In this document: one piece after another, positions 2,471 to 58,981 of the stretch
How positions within the stretch are numbered: the stretch's first letter is position 1
How the letters are laid out: the number at the start of each line of letters is the position of its first letter
Source: an uncultured Gammaproteobacteria bacterium
GTDB lineage: Bacteria; Patescibacteriota; Microgenomatia; UBA8517
NCBI GenBank assembly: GCA_964599625.1
Contig: CAZRGC010000003.1
Location: 97,759 to 161,758 of the forward strand
DNA length: 64,000 bases
Direction of reading: 5' to 3'
Translations under genes and position numbers: made by a program
Notes under the pieces: generated by a model
What the model saw: only the letters and a program-made list of their open reading frames with translations
Told to the model about the DNA's origin: nothing
The model's database searches: none

Positions 2471-4825
2471 ATGAAGAAAATAACAAAATCTTTAGAGCTC
2501 GGAGGAAAAACTCTGACTCTTACCACAGGTGAACTTGCAGAACAGGCAGCGGGTGCAGTTCTCGCTAGAATGGGCGACACAGTCGTATTGGCAACAGTGG
2601 CCGCAGCTCCACTCAAGATGGAAATGGATTATTTTCCACTTACAGTTGAATACCTCGAAAGACTTTATGCCGGTGGACGTATCAAAGGCAGTAAATGGGT
2701 CAAAAAAGAAGGAAGGCCCACAGATGAGGAAATTCTTTCCGCGAGACTTATAGACAGATCCATAAGACCCCTTTTCCCCAAGACCTACAAAAAAGAAGTT
2801 CAGGTGATTGTCACTGTAATGGCTGTGGACATGGAAAATGACCCTGCCATTTTGGGTGCAATCGCGGCTTCGGCAGCTGTTCACGTTTCTACACTTCCCT
2901 GGAAAGGTCCAGTTGCTCCACTTACGGTTGGACTTATAAACGGAGAGTACAAGATTAACCCGTCAAATTCAGAGATGGAAAATTCACTTATGGATCTTAC
3001 AGTTTCTTCGACAAAAGAGGCTGTTCTCATGATCGAGGCAGGAGCCAAAGAAGTAACAGAAGAGCAAATTGTGGGAGGAGTTGAATTTGCACAGAAAGAA
3101 TCTAAAGCGGTTTTGGCTTTTATTGAAGAACTTGCAAAAGAGGCAGGTAGGGACAGAGAAACATATGTTCCCGAAAAACCTTCTGCTGAACTTGAAAAAC
3201 AAGTAGAAAAACTGGTTGGAGACAAAATTGCGGGTGTTGTTGAAAGCTTGGTTAGTGTAGAAAACGGAAGATCTACAGAGCTTCAGGATTTGATTGACGC
3301 AGTTGTTGCAAATGTTACGGAGGAAGATGCTAAATGGGTTCCTGAGATTGTTGACCATATGAAGAAAGATTATATTCGTAGTCAGATTCTCAAAAAAGGA
3401 AAAAGACCAGACGGCAGGAAACTCACGGAAGTCAGAAAACTTTCTGGTGAGGTTGGCTATTTACCCAGAGTTCACGGTTCGGCTTTGTTCAAAAGAGGGC
3501 AGACACATGTCTTGTCTGTAGCTACGCTTGGTGCTCAGTCAATGGGACTCCTTTTGGAATCTGCAGAAGGCGAAGTCGAAAAAAGATATATGCACCAATA
3601 TTCCATGCCTCCTTATGCCAGCGGTGAGGTTGGAAGATTTGGTAACGCAGGAAGACGCGAAATTGGACACGGTGCTCTCGCAGAACGTGCACTTACACCG
3701 GTAATTCCTTCTCAGGATGAGTTCCCTTACACAATAAGAGTGGTATCAGAAGTTATGAGTTCAAATGGTTCGACTTCAATGGCTTCTGTTGTTGGTTCTA
3801 CATTGTCACTCATGGATGCAGGTGTACCCATAAAAGCTCCTGTTGCAGGTATTGCAATGGGTCTCATTATCGAAAACGAAAAAGAATTTGCGGTTCTTTC
3901 GGATATCATGGGCATCGAGGACTTCAACGGTGATATGGATTTCAAAGTGGCAGGCACCGATAACGGAATTACAGCACTTCAGCTTGATGTTAAGACCCTA
4001 AACCTTACCAAAGAAATTCTGGAGAAAGCACTTGAACAGTCCAAGGATGCAAGGTCCCAAGTGATGAAAGCCATCAAGGACACTTTGGCTGAACCCAGAA
4101 CTACAGTCTCGGAATATGCACCCAAGATTAAAGTGGTTAAGATTCCAGTTGAGAAGATTGGGGAATTTATAGGCCCAAGCGGAAAGAATATCAAAAAGCT
4201 TATGGCTGACACAGGGTGTCAGGTGGACGTTGAAGACGATGGAAGTGTTGCTATATCTGGAGTTGACCCGGACAAGATGCAGCAGGCGGTTGCATTTGTA
4301 GAAGGTTTTGCAAAAGTCGTGCAACCTGGAGAAATTTATGAAGGTGAAGTCGTGAGACTTATGTCATTCGGGGCATTTGTAAATATTTTGCCCGGCAAAG
4401 ACGGCATGGTGCATGTTTCAGACATGGGCCAGGAGGGATTTGTTAAAGATGCAGGAGATGTTGTAAGCATTGGACAAAAAGTTCAAGTTAGAGTTAAAGA
4501 AGTTGACGATATGGGAAGAATCAATCTTTCTATGAATATGGATCCTGCAATGGATGAAAAGATCAAAGCTGAAAGACAAGCAAAGTTTGGTGACAGAGGC
4601 GGCAGAGGTGGCGGACGAGGTGGATTTGGCGGAGGTCGCGGCGGATTTGGAGGCGGCAGAGGTGGCGGACGAGGTGGATTTGGCGGAGGTCGCGGCGGAT
4701 TTGGAGGCGGCAGAGGAAGAAGTTTTGACAGAGCCGATAGGGGTGCAAGTGGGGGACCACATTTTCCTGCATCCAGATTAATGGGTGACAATAATTCTTC
4801 GGGTGGCAACGACTTCGGAAGATAA
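2471..4825 (+). CDS. pnp: Polyribonucleotide nucleotidyltransferase (PNPase) with an RGG/RG-rich C-terminal extension
   Basis: 784 aa. Two RNase PH-like domains, KH (..KIGEFIGPSGKNIKKL..) and S1 (..GEVVRLMSFGAFVNILPGKDGMVHVSD..). Tail GGRGGGRGGFGGGRGGFG repeated. Confidence 0.95.
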   Translation: MKKITKSLELGGKTLTLTTGELAEQAAGAVLARMGDTVVLATVAAAPLKMEMDYFPLTVEYLERLYAGGRIKGSKWVKKEGRPTDEEILSARLIDRSIRPLFPKTYKKEVQVIVTVMAVDMENDPAILGAIAASAAVHVSTLPWKGPVAPLTVGLINGEYKINPSNSEMENSLMDLTVSSTKEAVLMIEAGAKEVTEEQIVGGVEFAQKESKAVLAFIEELAKEAGRDRETYVPEKPSAELEKQVEKLVGDKIAGVVESLVSVENGRSTELQDLIDAVVANVTEEDAKWVPEIVDHMKKDYIRSQILKKGKRPDGRKLTEVRKLSGEVGYLPRVHGSALFKRGQTHVLSVATLGAQSMGLLLESAEGEVEKRYMHQYSMPPYASGEVGRFGNAGRREIGHGALAERALTPVIPSQDEFPYTIRVVSEVMSSNGSTSMASVVGSTLSLMDAGVPIKAPVAGIAMGLIIENEKEFAVLSDIMGIEDFNGDMDFKVAGTDNGITALQLDVKTLNLTKEILEKALEQSKDARSQVMKAIKDTLAEPRTTVSEYAPKIKVVKIPVEKIGEFIGPSGKNIKKLMADTGCQVDVEDDGSVAISGVDPDKMQQAVAFVEGFAKVVQPGEIYEGEVVRLMSFGAFVNILPGKDGMVHVSDMGQEGFVKDAGDVVSIGQKVQVRVKEVDDMGRINLSMNMDPAMDEKIKAERQAKFGDRGGRGGGRGGFGGGRGGFGGGRGGGRGGFGGGRGGFGGGRGRSFDRADRGASGGPHFPASRLMGDNNSSGGNDFGR
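4598..4716 (+). repeat. Tandem 54-bp direct repeat (2 full copies + 11-nt partial) inside pnp, encoding the 18-aa unit GGRGGGRGGFGGGRGGFG
   Basis: Identical 54-nt units beginning at 4598 and 4652 (ggcggcagaggtggcggacgaggtggatttggcggaggtcgcggcggatttgga). Confidence 0.85.
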
Positions 4826-4846: not shown

Positions 4847-5929
4847 GTGATACACTGGAAAGGAATTTTTTTTAAATTTGTTATGGATACTGCCGCACAA
4901 GAAATAAACGTACTTATAGAAAAAGTTAAGGCCTCGGATATGCCCGACAAACTTCGTGAGAGAGTGATGGTAAGACTTAGTCAGTTGGCAAAACTTACAA
5001 ATTCCCCATCTTTTTTGCCAGAATTCGACAGCATGGTCAAATATATTGATTGGATAACAATTCTTCCTTGGAACAAAAGAACTAAAGATGTTTTGGATCT
5101 AGCTAACGCCGCAAAAATTTTGGAAGAACATCATTACGGATTGGCCGAGCTAAAAGAGAGAGTTTTGGAGTACATGAGTGTTATGAAACTTAAAACAGAG
5201 CGCGGAGAAAGTGCAGACATATATAGGGCCCCAATTCTTTGTTTTGTGGGACTTGTTGGTACAGGAAAGACAACGATCGCATATTCTATTGCCGAAGCTT
5301 TGGGACGCCCCATTGCCCGTATTCCTTTTGGAGGAATGGGAGACCCGCTTGATCTTCGTGGACAGTCTCGTATGCACCCCGAAGCAGAGCCGGGGAAGAT
5401 TATTAAAGCACTAAGAGACTGTCAGTCCAAAAATCCTGTCATACTTTTGGATGAAATCGACCGTGTCACAGAACAGGGTAGGGCTTCAATAATGGGTGTT
5501 TTGGTTGAGCTTTTGGACCCTAAACAGAATAAAGCTTTTACTGACCACTATTTAGATTTTCCAGTGGATTTATCCGAAGCATTGTTTATTGCGACAGCAA
5601 ACAACACAACCAATATAGCAACTGCTGTTATGGACAGAATCGAACCAATTTCCATGCCTTCATACTCAGATCAAGAAAAAATAGTAATTGCCAAAAAATA
5701 TATTCTGCCGCACGCGCTTAAAGCGTCAGGGCTTCCCGAGGGGTCTTTAACTATAGACGACGAAGTTTGGATTAATATTGTCCGTCCTTTGGGATTTGAT
5801 GCAGGTATCCGTACATTGGAAAGAAATATAGACGGCGTTGTGAGGAAAGTTGCAAGGTTAATGGTGGAAGGAAAAGCACAAACAGTAAGTGTTACCCCCC
5901 AGAACGTTAAACAATTCATGCCACAGTAA
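4847..5929 (+). CDS. Lon-family AAA+ ATPase module (no N-terminal LON domain, no S16 peptidase domain)
   Basis: ILPWNKRTKDVLDL..HYGLAELKERVLEYMSV, Walker A GLVGTGKTT, Walker B ILLDEIDRV. The ORF starts immediately after pnp and ends after the Lon alpha-helical lid (..GIRTLERNIDGVVRKVAR..). The downstream ORF has no Ser-Lys dyad peptidase motifs. Confidence 0.7.
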   Translation: MIHWKGIFFKFVMDTAAQEINVLIEKVKASDMPDKLRERVMVRLSQLAKLTNSPSFLPEFDSMVKYIDWITILPWNKRTKDVLDLANAAKILEEHHYGLAELKERVLEYMSVMKLKTERGESADIYRAPILCFVGLVGTGKTTIAYSIAEALGRPIARIPFGGMGDPLDLRGQSRMHPEAEPGKIIKALRDCQSKNPVILLDEIDRVTEQGRASIMGVLVELLDPKQNKAFTDHYLDFPVDLSEALFIATANNTTNIATAVMDRIEPISMPSYSDQEKIVIAKKYILPHALKASGLPEGSLTIDDEVWINIVRPLGFDAGIRTLERNIDGVVRKVARLMVEGKAQTVSVTPQNVKQFMPQ

Positions 5930-5979: not shown

Positions 5980-6006
5980 TTTACAAGCTATTTTGTTGTG
6001 TATAAT
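5980..6006 (+). promoter_or_regulatory. Putative sigma70-type promoter (TTTACA-15nt-TATAAT)
   Basis: TTTACA 5980-5985, TATAAT 6001-6006. Confidence 0.4.
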
Positions 6007-6559
6007 GTTTGAAATGGCAGAGGTTGGATACAATGTTTACGCACAAGAACGAAGATATATAGAAACCCGTGTTGCTGAGATTACATTGGTGGAGCATATA
6101 GCAACAATGTATAAATCCATTCAAGACAATGTTACTACGGGTTGGCATTCTGTAAACAATACTCAAAACCAAATTCTGGACATATTGGCAAACGATTACA
6201 ATTCATGGCAATCGTTTCCTGAGCACCAAAATAAAGCAGGTTTGGACAGGGGCGCTCACGGTGAATACTTTATGAGACTGATTGGAGCCGGAATATTGGA
6301 GGATTTACCTCACAGATTTTTGTCAGAAGATGGAAAAGACATTTCGGGCGTAGAAATTCTCGCCACTCCTTCAGGAGACGACGGTGTAGGTATATTTGAT
6401 GTGACTTTTAAAATAGAATCAGGCAAAAAGAATGAATTTGGAAGGGTTAGAGTAAACGCAAGTATGCAATCACTTAGAGCTAGGATGAAAGATTTGTCCG
6501 AAGAGATGCGAATTTATAACGAAAGAATAAATGAAGGTAGGGGCGATTGGCAAAAATGA
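5993..6559 (+). CDS. Hypothetical protein (likely true start at ATG 6014, just downstream of the -10 box)
   Basis: Long ORF with no recognisable motifs. The annotated start codons overlap the promoter hexamers. Confidence 0.4.
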   Translation: MLCIMFEMAEVGYNVYAQERRYIETRVAEITLVEHIATMYKSIQDNVTTGWHSVNNTQNQILDILANDYNSWQSFPEHQNKAGLDRGAHGEYFMRLIGAGILEDLPHRFLSEDGKDISGVEILATPSGDDGVGIFDVTFKIESGKKNEFGRVRVNASMQSLRARMKDLSEEMRIYNERINEGRGDWQK

Positions 6560-7032
6560 AAATATTAGTCATTTCTGACTCTCATGGACAAATTTCCAAC
6601 CTTGAACATATCTTGGGTTTTGCAAAAAAGATAGGCGCCGGGGCACTTATTCACTGTGGAGATTGGGATAATTTATCTTCCGTAGAAAAAGTTTTGGAGT
6701 CACAAATTCCGCTTTATTCAGTTTCTGGAAATGCCGATGTCGACCCCAGTATTAAAAAAAGACTAGAAGAAGGATCGGAAAAATATGGAGAAAACTTTCT
6801 GTATTTTGAGTTGGAAGGAAAAAAAATCGGAGTGACCCACAAACCTAAAGATGTTAAAAAATATTTTGAAAATAGTGGGGCAGATATAGTTTTTTGTGGA
6901 CATTTACACTCTGTAGACGACAATTTTGTTTCCGGAATCCGAGTTGTCAGACCCGGAGCGGTAAAATCAGGAATAAATATTGTTGTTTATGAAACAAAAA
7001 ATGGAGACCTAGAATTTATAAAAGATGAATGA
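6547..7032 (+). CDS. Metallophosphoesterase (YfcE/MJ0936 family phosphodiesterase)
   Basis: ILVISDSHG ... IHCGDW ... GHLH motifs typical of the calcineurin-like phosphoesterase family. Confidence 0.7.
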   Translation: MAKMKILVISDSHGQISNLEHILGFAKKIGAGALIHCGDWDNLSSVEKVLESQIPLYSVSGNADVDPSIKKRLEEGSEKYGENFLYFELEGKKIGVTHKPKDVKKYFENSGADIVFCGHLHSVDDNFVSGIRVVRPGAVKSGINIVVYETKNGDLEFIKDE

Positions 7033-7615
7033 AAGTATAATTCACGAAAAATACAAAAAACTCCACGAGTTAAAAGACAAAATGGAAAAGGACGAATCTT
7101 TACCTTTGAAAAAGGGTGCCACCCGCCTTGTTTTTGGAACCGGTAACACAGAAGCAAAGATTTTATGTATTGGGGAAGGGCCGGGCTTTAATGAGGACCG
7201 AGAAGGTCTGCCTTTTGTGGGACAAGCAGGGAGGTTGTTGGATAAACTTTTACATCTTGCAGGCATCGAGCGCAAGACGGTATTTATAACAAACGTTGTT
7301 CATCACAGACCCCCTGAGAACCGTGACCCGTTGCCAGAAGAAATATCCGCTTACGGAAAATACCTGGACGAAATAATAAAAATAATAAATCCTAAAATGA
7401 TTATTACACTTGGAAGGTTTTCAATGGCAAAGTTTTTACCTGATGTATTTATTTCTCAGGTGCATGGTAAAAATTACAAAGTTGATTTTGGAGGCAGAAC
7501 AGTAACTATTGTGCCAATGTATCATCCCGCAGCAAGTTTGAGGAACGGCAATATTTTAGAAGCAGAAAAAAAAGATTTTTTAGAACTCGGAAAAATATTG
7601 CGGGATTTTAATTAA
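7025..7615 (+). CDS. Uracil-DNA glycosylase, family 4
   Basis: GEGPGFNEDREGLPFVGQAGRLL and HHRPPENR.. motifs of family 4 UDG. Confidence 0.8.
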   Translation: MNESIIHEKYKKLHELKDKMEKDESLPLKKGATRLVFGTGNTEAKILCIGEGPGFNEDREGLPFVGQAGRLLDKLLHLAGIERKTVFITNVVHHRPPENRDPLPEEISAYGKYLDEIIKIINPKMIITLGRFSMAKFLPDVFISQVHGKNYKVDFGGRTVTIVPMYHPAASLRNGNILEAEKKDFLELGKILRDFN

Positions 7616-7649: not shown

Positions 7650-9377
7650 ATGAAAACATCTTCGCAAAGCAAAAACATGAATGAAAAAAATATAAAAACC
7701 AATCCCTCGATAATGACAACAAAAGTTACAGGTGGAATGAAATTTATAGCACTTTCGGGAACAACAGGTGTTACAGAGAATCTTTATGTATATGAATACG
7801 GTAACGACATGGTTGTTGTTGACTGTGGTGTCGGGTTTCCCGAATCTGAAATGTTTGGGGTGGACCTGGTTATACCTGATTTTTCTTATATAAAACAAAA
7901 CGCCCACAAATTAAGAGGTGTTCTTATTTCTCATGGACACGAAGACCACATTGGAGGTTTACCTTTCCTGCTAAAGGAAGTAAAAACCACAGTGTATGCC
8001 AGTAAACTTGTTGCCGGTTTTATTCAGGAGAAACTTGATGATGCAGAGGTCCAGGGGAATATTAAAGTCTTTGACCCCGAACGTGATGTTTTGACACTTG
8101 GAGTTTTTAAAGTTACACCTTTCAGAGTTGCCCACTCGGTTCCCGATGGGGTTGGTTTTTGTATCGACACACCCGAAGGAAAAATGTTCCATGTGCCGGA
8201 TTACAAATTTGATTGGACACCTGTAGATGGTAGGCCGTTTGACGTCGCAAAACTTTCTGTTCTGGCATCTGGTGGTGCATTGGCCTTGGCATCGGATTCT
8301 CTGGGGTCTACTTCACCTGGATACACTGAAAGCGAGAGAGAGATAGAAGGCAGAATTGAACCTATTGTGCGGGACGCCAAAGGTAAGGTGTACCTGACCA
8401 CTATCTCGTCAAATATAAGTCGTATGCAGCAAACTCTTAATGTCGCAGCAAAAACAGGAAGAAAAGTATGTTTCATTGGCAGATCTATCGTCAGAAAGTC
8501 CGAAATAGCCAGAGATCTGGGTTTTATGTCGCAGGGGAACGGAATAATTGTTCAACCCAAACAAGCCGCCAAACTTCCACCCAATAAAGTTCTTTATATT
8601 ATTTCAGGTAGTTACGGTCAACCCGGAAGTGCACTATACAGGCTTTGTCTGGGCGACCACGACTTCTTGTCTATTGGCAGTAATGACGTGGTTATATTTT
8701 CGGCAGATCCTGCTCCTCCAGGCAGTAAGGCAAATGTTGATTTTTTGGTAGACAAATTAATCGAGTCTGATGTGGATGTGCATTATTACGACATGCAGGA
8801 AGATCTTCATGTTTCGGGACATGGATGTATCAAAGACATCGAAATGCTTTTTGCTTTAGTTAGACCAAAGTATTTTATACCAATTGGTGGAACAGTAAGA
8901 CACAATAGAGCATATGGACTTATTGCTCAAAGTATGGGTGCCGAAGAAAAAGAAATCCTTGCACTTTTGCCTGGCGACATTGTTGAGTTTAATTCTGGAA
9001 TAGCCAGAAGGTCCGGAAAAATTCAGGTTAAAGAGGTGCTGGTTGACGGATTAGGCATTGGAGATGTTGGCAATTCGGTATTAAGGGATAGACACATCCT
9101 TTCTAAAGAGGGAGTTGTTATTGCAATGTGCCAATTTGATCGCAACAACGGTGTTCTTTCCGCACTCCCCGAAATGATAAGCCGAGGTTTTGTTTTTGAA
9201 CAAAAATATGGCCGGCTTTTGGATGAAGCGTCACGGGACCTTGCAAAGGTCCTGGATAGAAAAAAGAATGTTAACGCGCTTTTTATACGAAACACTACGA
9301 TTGATTTTCTCGAAAAATATTTCTTCCAAAAAACAGGCAGGCGCCCAATGATACTTCCGTTGGTTGTGGAGACTTGA
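7650..9377 (+). CDS. rnj: Ribonuclease J (metallo-beta-lactamase / beta-CASP)
   Basis: VVVDCGVGFPE..ISHGHEDHIGGLPFLL, HVSGHG, beta-CASP region. 575 aa. The true start may be an internal Met (approx. 7737). Confidence 0.85.
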   Translation: MKTSSQSKNMNEKNIKTNPSIMTTKVTGGMKFIALSGTTGVTENLYVYEYGNDMVVVDCGVGFPESEMFGVDLVIPDFSYIKQNAHKLRGVLISHGHEDHIGGLPFLLKEVKTTVYASKLVAGFIQEKLDDAEVQGNIKVFDPERDVLTLGVFKVTPFRVAHSVPDGVGFCIDTPEGKMFHVPDYKFDWTPVDGRPFDVAKLSVLASGGALALASDSLGSTSPGYTESEREIEGRIEPIVRDAKGKVYLTTISSNISRMQQTLNVAAKTGRKVCFIGRSIVRKSEIARDLGFMSQGNGIIVQPKQAAKLPPNKVLYIISGSYGQPGSALYRLCLGDHDFLSIGSNDVVIFSADPAPPGSKANVDFLVDKLIESDVDVHYYDMQEDLHVSGHGCIKDIEMLFALVRPKYFIPIGGTVRHNRAYGLIAQSMGAEEKEILALLPGDIVEFNSGIARRSGKIQVKEVLVDGLGIGDVGNSVLRDRHILSKEGVVIAMCQFDRNNGVLSALPEMISRGFVFEQKYGRLLDEASRDLAKVLDRKKNVNALFIRNTTIDFLEKYFFQKTGRRPMILPLVVET

Positions 9378-14878: not shown

Positions 14879-17107
14879 ATGAATTTAAAAGATTTTTTGT
14901 CCAACAAAGGAAAACCACCCGAACTCTATTGGTCGTTGGTATTGGAAGACGGTTGGGTTCAAGCCGGTATTTGGTATATAGATCAGTCTGTTGCGCAGGT
15001 TGTTGGAACAAGTCCCGCAGCAGCATGGGAAGTCAAAGAAGAATTGGTTGGAGCAACTGATTCAGCTTTGTCTTCGGCGATTCAAAGACTTCCGGAGGAT
15101 TACCCCGAACCCAACAAGACAGTGTTTGGCGTTCCTTCTTCATGGGTCAAAAACGGCGAGATCGACGAAGATCATTTGAGGTTGATTAAAAAAATTTGTT
15201 CAGAACTATCATTGATACCTGTGGGTTTTGTTGTGCTTCCTGAAGCAATTGCACATCTTTACAAGTCTGAAGAAGGGGCGCCTGTTAATGCGATAGTAAT
15301 GGGAATAGGGAGAGAGAATTTGGAAATTGCAGTGTTTTCTTTGGGTAATCTGTTGGGTACAACTCAGGTTGCCAGAAGTGTGTCTTTAATCGATGATGTT
15401 ACCGAGGGGCTATCCAGATTTGAAAGCTCTTCACCGCTCCCGTCTAGGTTTATTCTTTTTGACGGAAAAGGGGGAGAGTTGGAGGATGCTAAAGACCAAA
15501 TCCTAAAAAATCGTTGGGAAGAGAGTGAAAGAGTCAAATTTTTACACACACCAAAAGCTGAAATATTGCTCCCCGAAAGGAAAGTTTTGGCAACGTCTTT
15601 GGCGGGTGCAAACGAAATTGCAGATGTCTCAAAAGTTGAAACTCAAGACCAAAAAGAAGTTATCGAAGGTCCCTATACGGAGAACATCCCACCCGAAACA
15701 GCAAATGTCCAGGAAACAAACGAAGTTACACCTGAAGACCTTGGTTTTTCTTTGGATTCCGACGTGAGTTTGAACAAACAGGTTGAACCTGATGTTGTAA
15801 AAGCTTTTGAAAAACCGCCGGCTACTGAGCACGTGCAGCCCACGATTCACCGTCAATCTCCTGTTTTTGAACATAAGCCAAAAATTAACCTTAAAGAAAT
15901 GTTCAATAAAGTGAAAACAAAAGCATCGGCTTTGCTGAAAAGACTTTCGTTTTCGGCAAAAATCTCTTCTGCCAGACATGGAGTGATGAAGCCGGTGTAT
16001 CTGGTTGTTCTTGTGCTTGTTTTGGCAGGACTAGGGGCGCTTTGGTGGTTTGTACCCAAAGCGGAAGTAGTTGTATATGTTAGGCCTCAAATAGTTCAGG
16101 AAGAAACAGAAGTTGTATTTACAACTAGTGGCCAGGGTGACATAAATTCGGGGTTGGTTGCTGCCAAATCCGTGACCTCTAATGTTAGCGGCGAAAAGAC
16201 GAAGTCGGCAACTGGAAGCAAACTTGTCGGTGACAAAGCCAAGGGTACAGTACAAATTCAAAACGGCACAGCATTTCCAATCAATCTGACTGCCGGAACT
16301 TTTTTGGTGTCGTCGGGTAATTTAAAATTCGAACTTGATCAGGCAGCCTCAGTCTCTGCTGCGCTGTCCCCGACTTCGCCGGGAACGGCTAGCTTGTCTG
16401 TGACGGCGGGTTCGATAGGCGCGGAATACAATTTGGCAAAAAGTGAAGTATTCAAGGTAGGCAATTATCCCAAAGCCGAGGTTGATGCCACATCAATAAC
16501 CGACTTTGCAGGAGGAAGCTCCAGACAGATTTCAGCCGTAAGCAAAGTGGATATTGAAACATTGCAAACTTCACTTAAAGAGGAGCTAGTACAAAAAGCA
16601 AAGGAAGATTTATCGTCTAAGGTTTTAGACGGCCAAGTGTTGGTTTCTGATTTTGTTTCAAGCGATGTTGCATCCGAAACATTTGATCACAAACAGGGTG
16701 AAGAAGCCAACAACGTTAAGTTAAATATGGAGATTGCTGCCAATGCGCTTGTGGCCGACAAGAACAATTTATATGATTTTGCATCAAAAGTTCTGACTGA
16801 CAAAAAACCGGAGGGTTTTGTTTTAAGAAACGAACAAATAAAGTTCGAGTTTAGTTTTGTGGAACAAAAAGACGAGGGTTATGTTTACAAGGTAAAAATC
16901 AATGCAAATTTCCTACCTTCATTTTCTGAGAAGGACATAGTAGATAAAATTATTGGAAAGAACCGGGCAACCGCAAAAAATTATCTGTCGAGTATTCCTG
17001 GCTTCGTAAGGGTGGAACTGAAAATCAATCCGCCTTATCCGTTTATATTTAACAGCCTTCCAAGAGTTAGAAAAAACATTGATATTACAGTTGAGGCAGA
17101 CAGGTAG
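14879..17107 (+). CDS. FtsA/PilM-like actin-fold domain fused to a TM segment and a large extracytoplasmic domain (function unknown)
   Basis: N-terminal ~230 aa show the actin-like ATPase pattern (..LIKKICSELSLIPVGFVVLPEAIAHLY...AIVMGIGRENLEIAVFSLGN..). TM at ~aa 370-392 (VYLVVLVLVLAGLGALWWFV). ~350-aa C-terminal domain with no motifs. Confidence 0.5.
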   Translation: MNLKDFLSNKGKPPELYWSLVLEDGWVQAGIWYIDQSVAQVVGTSPAAAWEVKEELVGATDSALSSAIQRLPEDYPEPNKTVFGVPSSWVKNGEIDEDHLRLIKKICSELSLIPVGFVVLPEAIAHLYKSEEGAPVNAIVMGIGRENLEIAVFSLGNLLGTTQVARSVSLIDDVTEGLSRFESSSPLPSRFILFDGKGGELEDAKDQILKNRWEESERVKFLHTPKAEILLPERKVLATSLAGANEIADVSKVETQDQKEVIEGPYTENIPPETANVQETNEVTPEDLGFSLDSDVSLNKQVEPDVVKAFEKPPATEHVQPTIHRQSPVFEHKPKINLKEMFNKVKTKASALLKRLSFSAKISSARHGVMKPVYLVVLVLVLAGLGALWWFVPKAEVVVYVRPQIVQEETEVVFTTSGQGDINSGLVAAKSVTSNVSGEKTKSATGSKLVGDKAKGTVQIQNGTAFPINLTAGTFLVSSGNLKFELDQAASVSAALSPTSPGTASLSVTAGSIGAEYNLAKSEVFKVGNYPKAEVDATSITDFAGGSSRQISAVSKVDIETLQTSLKEELVQKAKEDLSSKVLDGQVLVSDFVSSDVASETFDHKQGEEANNVKLNMEIAANALVADKNNLYDFASKVLTDKKPEGFVLRNEQIKFEFSFVEQKDEGYVYKVKINANFLPSFSEKDIVDKIIGKNRATAKNYLSSIPGFVRVELKINPPYPFIFNSLPRVRKNIDITVEADR

Positions 17108-33866: not shown

Positions 33867-35015
33867 ATGATTCTTGGACTGAAATTAACTGTCGAAAACG
33901 ACGATATTGTCGACATTGGCGGAGATTTGTACGTCAAAAACTCCAAAGCCATGAAGCGTCTTCACAGGGAGCTTCGCTACCTGGGATACCAAATCGACAA
34001 CTTGCGGCACGATAAATACCGCTTGGACAAGGGAGCCACCCCGCGCGAAATGGAAAAAGGTGGTTGGTCGCTTTGGTTTGCCAAGTTACCCAATATCAGA
34101 CGTGGTGTCTGTGGAAGCTGTGGAGCAACCATTTCCACTCTCGGCATTCAGTCACACGGCCACAAATGCGAGAGGTGCGGCGAAGTGACCTACTGGGAAA
34201 TGGTGGAAGGATCAGTAATCCGGTTCGTCTTTTTGCAAAAAGAGGGCCGTGGAATGTGGGATCCCGAGCTTAAGATGAAAGTGCACCATTGGGATACGCG
34301 TGAAGGGCTTTTATATCTTTACCCGGAAGCCTTGGAAGGTGGCCTTTCGACTGTGACGGGAGATACAGCACGGCAGTACTTGGGCAATAACCACGAAAAG
34401 TGGAATGTAGTCACGATCGATGGCCAAAAAATTATCGTGATCAAGTACCCCAAGCAGTGGCGGCGCGATACGGCTGTTATCGAACCTTATGAGATTTACG
34501 GTCATCAGTGGAATCACAAGATCGTCAAAATCTACAAAGGTAAACATTACAGTGACTGGGACCGGCTCCCTGTTCCCGAGACATTTTCTATCTACGAAAC
34601 CTGGCACTGGGACAAGCTTGTGGCTTCGCCAACATTGCACAGGCGTGTATTGCAGGCTGTTCACAACACCGATGACAAGGGTTGGCACTACCAAGACGGT
34701 CGTCCCTGGTTTAGAGAAGGAAGCTGGAAGGGCATGGCAAAGTTTATTCGCCATTTTACAGCCCTTGATGCTGATGCCTTTGACCGAGCCTGGCCACGTT
34801 TCAGAAACGACGGTCCCGGCGGGATCGACGACTTGGCACACTTCTGTCACCCCAAAGCCATCACTCGTGATGAGCCAAACATAGGTAATGTTCTTGTTGC
34901 CATGGGGAAACGCATGGAAAATAAGTCTCTCACGCGCGATGAGATCGAAGCAGCCAAACGCGGCTTGAGCGATCCATTGACGGGTGATTTTTTACGTTCC
35001 CTGCGTAAGCGTTAG
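33867..35015 (+). CDS. Island ORF2, hypothetical Trp/His-rich protein with a Cys4 zinc ribbon (382 aa)
   Basis: CGSCG...HKCERCG cluster. Many W/H/Y residues. Higher local GC by eye. No family motif recognised. Confidence 0.55.
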   Translation: MILGLKLTVENDDIVDIGGDLYVKNSKAMKRLHRELRYLGYQIDNLRHDKYRLDKGATPREMEKGGWSLWFAKLPNIRRGVCGSCGATISTLGIQSHGHKCERCGEVTYWEMVEGSVIRFVFLQKEGRGMWDPELKMKVHHWDTREGLLYLYPEALEGGLSTVTGDTARQYLGNNHEKWNVVTIDGQKIIVIKYPKQWRRDTAVIEPYEIYGHQWNHKIVKIYKGKHYSDWDRLPVPETFSIYETWHWDKLVASPTLHRRVLQAVHNTDDKGWHYQDGRPWFREGSWKGMAKFIRHFTALDADAFDRAWPRFRNDGPGGIDDLAHFCHPKAITRDEPNIGNVLVAMGKRMENKSLTRDEIEAAKRGLSDPLTGDFLRSLRKR

Positions 35016-58366: not shown

Positions 58367-58981
58367 ATGCCCAAGAAAGAAACACATTCTTTGATTGAGT
58401 ACTTGGCAATACGCGAAGAAGAACGAATGAAAGCTGTTCGCGAGGGAACACCCGGAGTGCAAAAACGGCTTAAAGAAATGATTCTTCACAGATGGGGGGA
58501 GATTTTGGCAATAAAACAAACAGAAATCCCGCCCGAAATCCATGAAATGGTTGGGTACAAAATGCCGAAAACCGCGGCAACAGTTCTTTGGATGTCGCCT
58601 TCCCCAAACGATTTTGATGTTTTTGGTAAAACCGACATTGATTCAGTGAGTCTTTTTACACAACTTGCCCAAAACACACTTTGGGAAGCCAATAAAAAAA
58701 GTGACGTTTTGAATTATTTCCAAAAACTTGCCGATAATTTGTCGGATTTGAAACACAAATTTAAAATTCCCACCGAGATCAGATATTTTTCACCGCGTCT
58801 AAATGAAAGTGTTTTGCAAACATTATGGAGGCTTCCTTCACCTTGGCTTTGGGGATTTGATGACCGCGATGAGGTTGTTGACTTGCGAAGGTCGCCAATG
58901 GGTATGTGGAAAGACAACGACAGACAACAAGTTATAAATTATATGAGAGTTGTTGCTGACAACATTGAGTATATTCATTAA
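58367..58981 (+). CDS. Hypothetical protein (204 aa)
   Basis: ORF with no motifs. Divergent from the minus-strand pair. Confidence 0.4.
   Translation: MPKKETHSLIEYLAIREEERMKAVREGTPGVQKRLKEMILHRWGEILAIKQTEIPPEIHEMVGYKMPKTAATVLWMSPSPNDFDVFGKTDIDSVSLFTQLAQNTLWEANKKSDVLNYFQKLADNLSDLKHKFKIPTEIRYFSPRLNESVLQTLWRLPSPWLWGFDDRDEVVDLRRSPMGMWKDNDRQQVINYMRVVADNIEYIH

Follow-up and report, generated by a model that had tools for sequence, protein, structure and literature searches.

A conserved Lon-derived AAA+ ATPase gene without a protease domain and with remodelled pore loops in Microgenomates-type bacteria

Lon is usually defined by an AAA+ motor fused to a protease in one polypeptide. In the LonA of Meiothermus taiwanensis (MtaLonA), Tyr397 is the substrate-contacting residue of pore loop 1 and Trp431 is the aromatic residue of pore loop 2 with a role in translocation, while Arg484 contacts the ATP of the neighbouring protomer, Glu446 helps to sense this trans-ATP, and Arg541 represents sensor II (PMC8503904). 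The LonC of the same species is described as a protein of dual chaperone-protease function that has no ATPase activity (PMC3391209, PMC13069640). In this study, a stretch of 64,000 nucleotides (nt) from a bacterium of the lineage Microgenomatia (contig CAZRGC010000003.1, positions 97,759 to 161,758; hereafter the window) was investigated with respect to one of its genes, here called lonAAA, which had been annotated initially as a Lon-like AAA+ ATPase devoid of both the N-terminal LON domain and the S16 peptidase domain. We observed that lonAAA is a natural and strongly conserved Lon motor without the protease, the N-domain and the translocating aromatic residues, in which the machinery of ATP hydrolysis is kept.

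Architecture, conservation and origin of the gene

The open reading frame (ORF) at 4847-5929 is present on the forward strand and closes with the stop codon TAA at 5927-5929. Its start, which the initial annotation had set at 4847, is most likely the ATG at 4883, giving a protein of 348 amino acids (aa) that ends at 5929, because an identical protein on 13 contigs and more than 100 homologous clusters are all called with 348 aa; the upstream GTG at 4847 as an alternative start finds no backing among the homologues. The Pfam matches of the 360-aa ORF comprised AAA (PF00004, residues 131-267, 5.4e-18) and Lon_lid (PF22667, residues 292-345, 2.2e-10) and none besides, with neither the LON N-domain (PF02190) nor Lon_C being found in it. 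Similarly, the profile TIGR00763 'endopeptidase La' was aligned at its positions 253-573 of 795 only and scored 327.3 bits against a cutoff of 608, which is about half, and NF008053 gave 251 bits against a cutoff of 891. There was no curated family in Pfam or NCBIfam that is specific to this protein. With reference to solved structures, the best sequence match was the LonA of B. subtilis (3m6a, residues 8-338, E 4.6e-78), and the protein could be aligned from end to end with the part of the B. subtilis, human, E. coli, Yersinia and Meiothermus Lon proteins that consists of the three-helix bundle and the AAA+ domain. Its N-terminal region corresponds to about residues 245-340 of LonA and, in a model computed with AlphaFold2 (AF2), folds into helices at residues 2-17, 22-37, 44-60, 73-83 and 88-106.

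Both ends of the gene agree with what had been claimed from the first reading of the sequence. In the alignment, the stop codon lies a few residues past the conserved aromatic residue of the lid-protease linker, so that the ORF ends where the S16 domain should begin, and on the other side pnp ends at 4825, 57 nt ahead of the lonAAA start, so that there is no room for an N-domain upstream. When six S16 domains and five LON N-domains served as tblastn queries, neither the window nor the 21 related loci (~330 kb) gave a match at E<0.1, while canonical loci, used as positive controls, gave E values of 1e-57 to 1e-76 for S16 and of 1e-12 to 1e-56 for the N-domains. Also, no G[PDG]S[AG][GSA] motif in a Lon-like context was seen in any ORF of at least 120 aa. 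The initial description of a Lon-like ATPase lacking both domains is thus upheld by Pfam, by the coverage of TIGR00763 and by the tblastn negatives.

In the protein collection, at least 120 clusters were listed at 81-100% identity to lonAAA, nearly all of exactly 348 aa, with more than 100 clusters of this length in Microgenomates genomes falling at 81-86%. Those that have a name are called 'AAA family ATPase' or 'ATP-dependent Lon protease' and come from Microgenomates or Woesebacteria; the 13 contigs with the identical protein come from independent samples. An exhaustive search among representatives at 50% identity disclosed about 23 further protease-less proteins of 348-669 aa with 40-58% identity, some of the distant ones carrying Gln/Pro-rich N- or C-terminal extensions. 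One of these distant forms is named Candidatus Dojkabacteria, and their loci are labelled Levybacteria, Shapirobacteria and Patescibacteria, with Woesebacteria found as well. Protease-less relatives down to 40% identity share the same end position in the linker. The accompanying scan of contigs for Lon loci covered the best 80 loci of at least 600 stretches, most of them canonical Lons of other phyla. Compared with the complete Woesebacteria genome CP066686.1, lonAAA showed 84% identity and a non-synonymous divergence (dN) of 0.129, next to values of 0.123 for rpsO, 0.141 for pnp, 0.176 for rnj, 0.197 for ftsK and 0.218 for udg; the synonymous sites are saturated in this comparison (proportion of synonymous differences, pS, about 0.75), so only the rankings of dN and identity are meaningful. 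With a pace of evolution as low as that of a ribosomal protein, lonAAA probably has a core function in these organisms of minimal genome.

These observations bear directly on the suggestion, made in the initial annotation, that the gene might be a degraded Lon pseudogene, and on the worry that a frameshift or an assembly error had removed the protease domain. All that speaks for such a reading is the architecture, which is shortened relative to LonA. Against it, the same 348-aa product recurs in more than 100 clusters and on 13 independent contigs, across assemblies and lineages, its dN is at the level of rpsO and close to that of pnp, the catalytic residues are invariant, the relatives end at the same linker position, and tblastn reveals no S16 remnant downstream in any frame. 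Readthrough or a frameshift into a protease was ruled out on the same basis, as no S16 similarity exists in any frame and independent assemblies are identical in architecture. Because of the recurrent 348-aa form, the low dN, the invariant catalytic residues and the missing S16 remnant, the readings of frameshift, assembly error and decay are excluded, and the probability we leave to a pseudogene or an artefact is negligible.

With regard to fold and origin, the AF2 monomer model based on the family alignment reached a predicted local distance difference test (pLDDT) score of 89.2 and a predicted TM-score (pTM) of 0.83, and it resembled the AAA+ modules of LONP1 and bacterial Lons with query-normalised TM-scores (TMq) of 0.79-0.88. 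In a neighbour-joining (NJ) tree of 181 Lon AAA+ modules, 23 short forms made up an exclusive clade, with a bootstrap of 71/100 in an NJ subsample of 83 taxa. As judged from this tree, the short forms are one clade within the candidate phyla radiation (CPR, or Patescibacteria), including Microgenomates-type lineages and Dojkabacteria, a pattern in line with one early loss event in this part of the radiation.

Retained motor motifs and remodelled pore loops

Sixteen short forms were aligned to check the motifs, both by themselves and together with six canonical Lons, and the positions and invariant residues of the motifs are collected in Table 1. All elements of a LonA-type AAA+ module, namely Walker A and B, sensor 1, the Arg finger, sensor 2, the pre-sensor-1 (PS1) hairpin and the Lon-type lid, are present in lonAAA. 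The Walker A motif reads GL(V/A/Q)G in the short forms, versus GPPG (GPPGVGKT) in canonical LonA. Arg252 stands 40 residues past the LDP motif, which is exactly the spacing from Asp444 to Arg484 in MtaLonA. At the level of sequence, the strongest sign that ATP is hydrolysed within an oligomer is the invariance of this trans-acting Arg finger; such a residue would make sense only in an oligomer, and a hexameric ring with ATPase activity may be expected from it.

The two pore loops, on the other hand, depart from the LonA pattern. In the ungapped phmmer alignment to the B. subtilis and human Lons, M164-H165-P166-E167-A168-E169 stands opposite T-Y-V-G-A-M, so that His165 falls on the pore-loop-1 Tyr of LonA (Tyr397 of MtaLonA) and an acidic E-A-E takes the place of G-A-M. 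In pore loop 2, Gly199 is found at the position of the aromatic residue (Phe in B. subtilis, Trp431 in MtaLonA), and the 'RGDP' of LonA is missing. Among 150 representatives, all proteins with a single AAA+ module and a recognised S16 motif exhibited a loop 1 that is of the R[RK]TY type (RGHRRTY[IV]GA[ML]PG) or varies little from it, whereas all single-module members of the protease-less clade displayed x-x-x-[DE]-A-E-P-G (xSRxxx[DE]AEPG), in which the Tyr is replaced by H, R, F, S, E, N, Q or T. The segments LRGQSRMHPEAEPGK and RxSIMGVLV are ~100% conserved in the 120 close clusters, in which the mean column conservation of the whole protein is 0.90. As read from these alignments, the loss of the protease domain and the remodelling of the pore coincided, and the channel is still under selection. 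Since both pore-loop aromatics have been replaced by a conserved acidic loop, an ordinary unfoldase that feeds a protease is disfavoured for lonAAA.

Apart from the short forms, the library also contained Lon proteins of 900-3800 aa (P0121-P0138, P0145, P0152, P0156 and others) with two or three tandem Lon AAA+ modules. Most of them harbor one S16 domain, the S16 motif being unrecognised in P0145 and P0156, the pore loops of their extra modules are often degenerate, and several of these proteins show N-termini that resemble signal peptides. These tandem-module proteins outscore the single-module Lons because the domain matches several times.

Proposed role and genomic neighbourhood

The initial annotation had named a repurposed ATPase as the other possibility beside a pseudogene, and the analysis came down on its side, as the ATPase residues are invariant and a new conserved acidic loop stands in place of the lost pore-loop aromatics. 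We propose, with a probability of roughly 0.55, that lonAAA encodes a functional housekeeping ATPase derived from Lon, which would assemble as a Lon-like ring and hydrolyse ATP. Its central channel would be lined by the conserved acidic loop ([DE]-A-E-P-G) in place of the Tyr-hydrophobic paddle, on account of which substrates would not be threaded to a degradation chamber, and the protein may remodel or chaperone specific, possibly basic clients in an ATP-dependent manner without proteolysis, or serve as a switch for them. Several points weigh against this proposal. The AAA+ part of E. coli Lon, when separated from the protease domain, oligomerises poorly, which means that a stand-alone ring is not guaranteed, and in this sub-clade Lys214 is found at the position of Glu446 of MtaLonA. 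The sub-clades P0139, P0140 and P0144 carry Phe or Tyr within the remodelled loop, so threading is not barred in every sub-clade. A protease acting in trans or a full-length Lon partner encoded elsewhere in the genome is possible, and the conserved synteny described below may be inherited gene order and not functional coupling.

The gene order in the window is rpsO - pnp - lonAAA - ORF184 - metallophosphoesterase - uracil-DNA glycosylase (UDG) - RNase J - FtsK - RodZ-like, and the block that usually surrounds the short form is rpsO-pnp-[lonAAA]-(udg)-rnj-ftsK. In 16 of the 22 independent loci, the short-form gene adjoins or is near pnp, udg or rnj, often directly between pnp and rnj, and several loci show start/stop overlaps or gaps of less than 15 nt between it and udg or rnj. 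No terminator was predicted between pnp and rnj apart from inside coding sequence; the promoter and terminator scan yielded fewer sites than shuffled sequence and no obvious terminator flanking lonAAA; co-transcription of the gene with the rpsO-pnp ... rnj housekeeping block is probable. The C-terminus of the upstream neighbour pnp (4540-4825) encodes a tail of ~90 aa that is disordered, rich in Arg and Gly and contains RGG-type repeats (GGRGGFGGGRGG...). Similar long basic tails are found in the polynucleotide phosphorylases (PNPases) of L009-L014, L020, L021 and L092, and not in that of L089. Bacterial PNPases seldom have such a tail, which may play a part in binding RNA or in forming condensates. 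In two loci, L006 and L091, groES or groEL lies close to the short Lon ATPase gene. In two divergent lineages, at L089 (11147-12373) and L091 (3107-4156), the short gene is followed by a gene for a PilM/FtsA-like actin-fold protein, directly or one gene on. The gro genes and the actin-fold gene may be alternative functional neighbours.

A different use of the same machinery would be a split Lon, in which the ATPase ring docks on a separately encoded S16 peptidase or another self-compartmentalising peptidase and drives proteolysis. Two-component AAA+ proteases such as ClpXP and HslUV are a known design of this kind, the ATPase machinery and ring-channel elements such as the PS1 beta-hairpin are conserved, and lonAAA ends exactly at the linker that normally leads to the protease ring. 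However, both pore-loop aromatics required for Lon translocation are lost, no S16 domain exists within 10 kb in the 22 loci or in the 64-kb window, where split partners would usually be adjacent, and the alignment displays no conserved C-terminal docking motif. We consider the split arrangement unlikely, though it stands ahead of the other functional alternatives. One of these assigns the protein to RNA turnover, as an accessory which acts on PNPase or RNase J, for example by remodelling the disordered Arg/Gly-rich tail of PNPase through the acidic pore. The location of the gene between pnp and rnj in most loci, with intergenic gaps that are often very short or overlapping, the long basic RGG-like tails of the PNPases in these loci, and the acidic pore loop in a family of mostly acidic proteins (isoelectric point, pI, about 5.2-6.0) all fit such a role. 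Nevertheless, the synteny may be ancestral: the order rpsO-pnp ... rnj ... ftsK also occurs in Firmicutes such as B. subtilis, where no lonAAA gene is known, which makes the synteny weak functional evidence. Other contexts occur in six of the 22 loci, two of them near groES/groEL. The locus L089 has a family member together with a PNPase that has no basic tail, by which a strict coupling of the short-form gene to RGG-tailed PNPases was weakened as well. Taking both sides together, a role in RNA turnover appears improbable.

A narrower version of this idea is that a whole CPR branch has swapped the Lon protease for a stand-alone motor, the acidic pore of which would recognise disordered segments rich in Arg, among them the RGG-like tail of the adjacent PNPase; we put it forward as a speculation that is a little less probable still. 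If true, the PNPase-tail reading would amount to an ATP-driven, non-degradative regulator of RNA degradation and to a new functional class of the HslU-ClpX-Lon-RuvB (HCLR) clade that works without aromatic pore loops. About as doubtful as the role in RNA turnover is a nucleotide-dependent DNA-binding or switch protein that operates through the Lon lid, or a regulatory subunit that co-assembles with full-length Lon. The lid, which is a DNA-binding sub-domain in some Lons, is kept, the lid-only structures 4git and 1x37 match it, and the neighbours udg and ftsK are related to DNA. Yet few segments are as conserved as the remodelled pore loops, a sign that the channel is in use, and the proteins are mostly acidic. 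As for the regulatory subunit, tblastn found no full-length Lon in any related locus, and the canonical Lons in the survey are just 36-46% identical to lonAAA.

Concerning the remaining features of the window, the ORF that follows lonAAA had been taken as 5993-6559 and as free of protease-like motifs; the second part holds, as it has no protease match, while its start is better placed at the ATG at 6005, for a product of 184 aa (ORF184). This ORF has no match in Pfam, NCBIfam, PADLOC or PHROG, it is only 30% identical to its positional counterpart in a relative with 84% identity in the Lon-AAA protein, its stop overlaps the start of the next gene, and its single-sequence AF2 model has a pLDDT of 41. 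Both ORF184 and the phosphoesterase are confined to close relatives, ORF184 being absent from relatives at 50-60% identity. ORF184 was rejected as a protease or a conserved partner, given that it has no family match, diverges fast and is missing from distant loci; it is no general partner.

On the scale of the whole window (1-64000), nearly all genes lie on the forward strand, with a handful of the 72 long ORFs on the reverse strand, and the GC skew, at 0.05-0.23, is positive in 32 of 32 two-kb bins. So strong an asymmetry between the strands is reminiscent of the one named in the title of a paper on a complete Microgenomates genome (PMC7143001). Three large ORFs were without a significant Pfam match, at 14879-17107 (+, 742 aa), 33867-35015 (+, 382 aa) and 58367-58981 (+, 204 aa), of which the 742-aa one gave a sub-threshold Baseplate_J match only. 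They lie amid core genes, which include those for an alanyl-tRNA synthetase (AlaRS)-like protein, a sortase, YceG, rpoB/C, the ribosomal operon, recA-recX and RNase Y.

Table 1. Coordinates of lonAAA, its sub-features and its neighbours in the window
Feature	Coordinates	Strand	Residues and remarks
Lon-derived AAA+ ATPase gene (lonAAA)	4883..5929	+	348 aa; three-helix bundle, AAA alpha/beta domain and Lon lid
N-terminal helical region	4883..5200	+	aa 1-106; LonA three-helix bundle preceding the AAA+ core; conserved YIDW..LPW motif
Walker A	5249..5272	+	GLVGTGKT, aa 123-130; G123, G126, G128, K129 and T130 invariant
Pore loop 1, remodelled	5354..5395	+	LRGQSRMHPEAEPG, aa 158-171
Walker B	5444..5461	+	LLDEID, aa 188-193; D190 and E191 invariant
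Pore loop 2, remodelled	5462..5497	+	RVTEQGRASIMG, aa 194-205
Base of PS1 beta-hairpin	5513..5530	+	D212, P213, Q215 and N216 invariant
Sensor 1	5600..5602	+	Asn240 (ATANN), invariant
Trans-acting Arg finger	5636..5638	+	Arg252 (MDRIE); D251-R252 invariant
Lon-type lid (AAA alpha sub-domain)	5657..5917	+	aa 259-345; Pfam Lon_lid
Sensor 2	5810-5812	+	Arg310 in GIRTLER, invariant; G308 likewise
Polynucleotide phosphorylase (pnp)	2471..4825	+	Arg/Gly-rich C-terminal tail; conserved upstream neighbour in the clade
ORF184	6005..6559	+	184 aa; start ATG 6005; lineage-specific
Family-4-type UDG	7025..7615	+	conserved downstream neighbour
RNase J (rnj)	7650..9377	+	conserved downstream neighbour

Comparison with known Lon and Lon-like systems

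In JGI/IMG, the 348-aa proteins are labelled 'ATP-dependent Lon protease', and one NCBI record bears the name 'ATP-dependent protease La'. This is a systematic over-annotation as Lon protease in CPR genomes, and because these names mislead, metabolic and proteostasis reconstructions of Microgenomates-type CPR bacteria may wrongly credit them with a Lon protease. Our literature search found no description of a protease-less Lon in CPR bacteria. The gene raises the questions of what role a Lon ring has without proteolysis, and whether a ring of the HCLR clade can work with a non-aromatic, acidic pore.

Other AAA+ families offer a parallel in concept only, that of a motor without proteolysis: ClpB as against ClpA, and the plastid FtsHi proteins, are cases in which motors of AAA+ proteases have been reused without proteolysis, with their aromatic pore loops kept. 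To BrxL of the bacteriophage exclusion (BREX) system and other Lon-like ATPases of defence systems, lonAAA bears a generic P-loop similarity and nothing more. PADLOC returned weak generic AAA matches for it (the best being DolB, E 7e-6) and no BrxL, and a BREX-like defence reading was rejected, the matches being generic and the neighbours housekeeping genes and not a defence island.

Alignment to LonA, LonB and LonC, together with the BREX comparison, identified a LonA-type module without the distinguishing features of LonB, LonC or BrxL; by its sequence, lonAAA belongs to none of the three Lon classes and is a LonA-type AAA+ module of the HCLR clade. Its closest described relatives are the LonA proteins (MEROPS S16; B. 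subtilis 3M6A, E. coli 6U5Z, M. taiwanensis 7FD4 and human LONP1), the three-helix bundle and AAA+ part of which is 36-46% identical. The same fold (TMq 0.8-0.88), the ATPase motifs, the PS1 hairpin and the Lon-type lid are shared with them. In contrast to LonA, however, it has neither the LON N-domain nor the S16 domain with the Ser-Lys dyad (PKDGPSAG motif), His165 and Gly199 replace the pore-loop aromatics, RRTY[IV]G is missing, and its score stays under the family cutoff. Unlike LonB, it carries no insertion between Walker A and Walker B, which is the membrane anchor of LonB, and no S16 domain, and its best matches are all LonA-type.

The structure with nearly identical boundaries is 6N2I, the E. 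coli 'Lon protease AAA+ domain', to residues 4-337 of which lonAAA residues 1-344 correspond (TMq 0.86; target-normalised TM-score, TMt, 0.89). That chain is a laboratory truncation with canonical pore loops, whereas lonAAA occurs in nature as a conserved gene of its own, with its loops remodelled. With LonC, finally, it shares the condition of a Lon family member that gave up one of its two activities, though as a mirror image: LonC kept the protease beside a degenerate, non-hydrolysing AAA-like module, while in lonAAA the ATPase is intact and the protease is gone.

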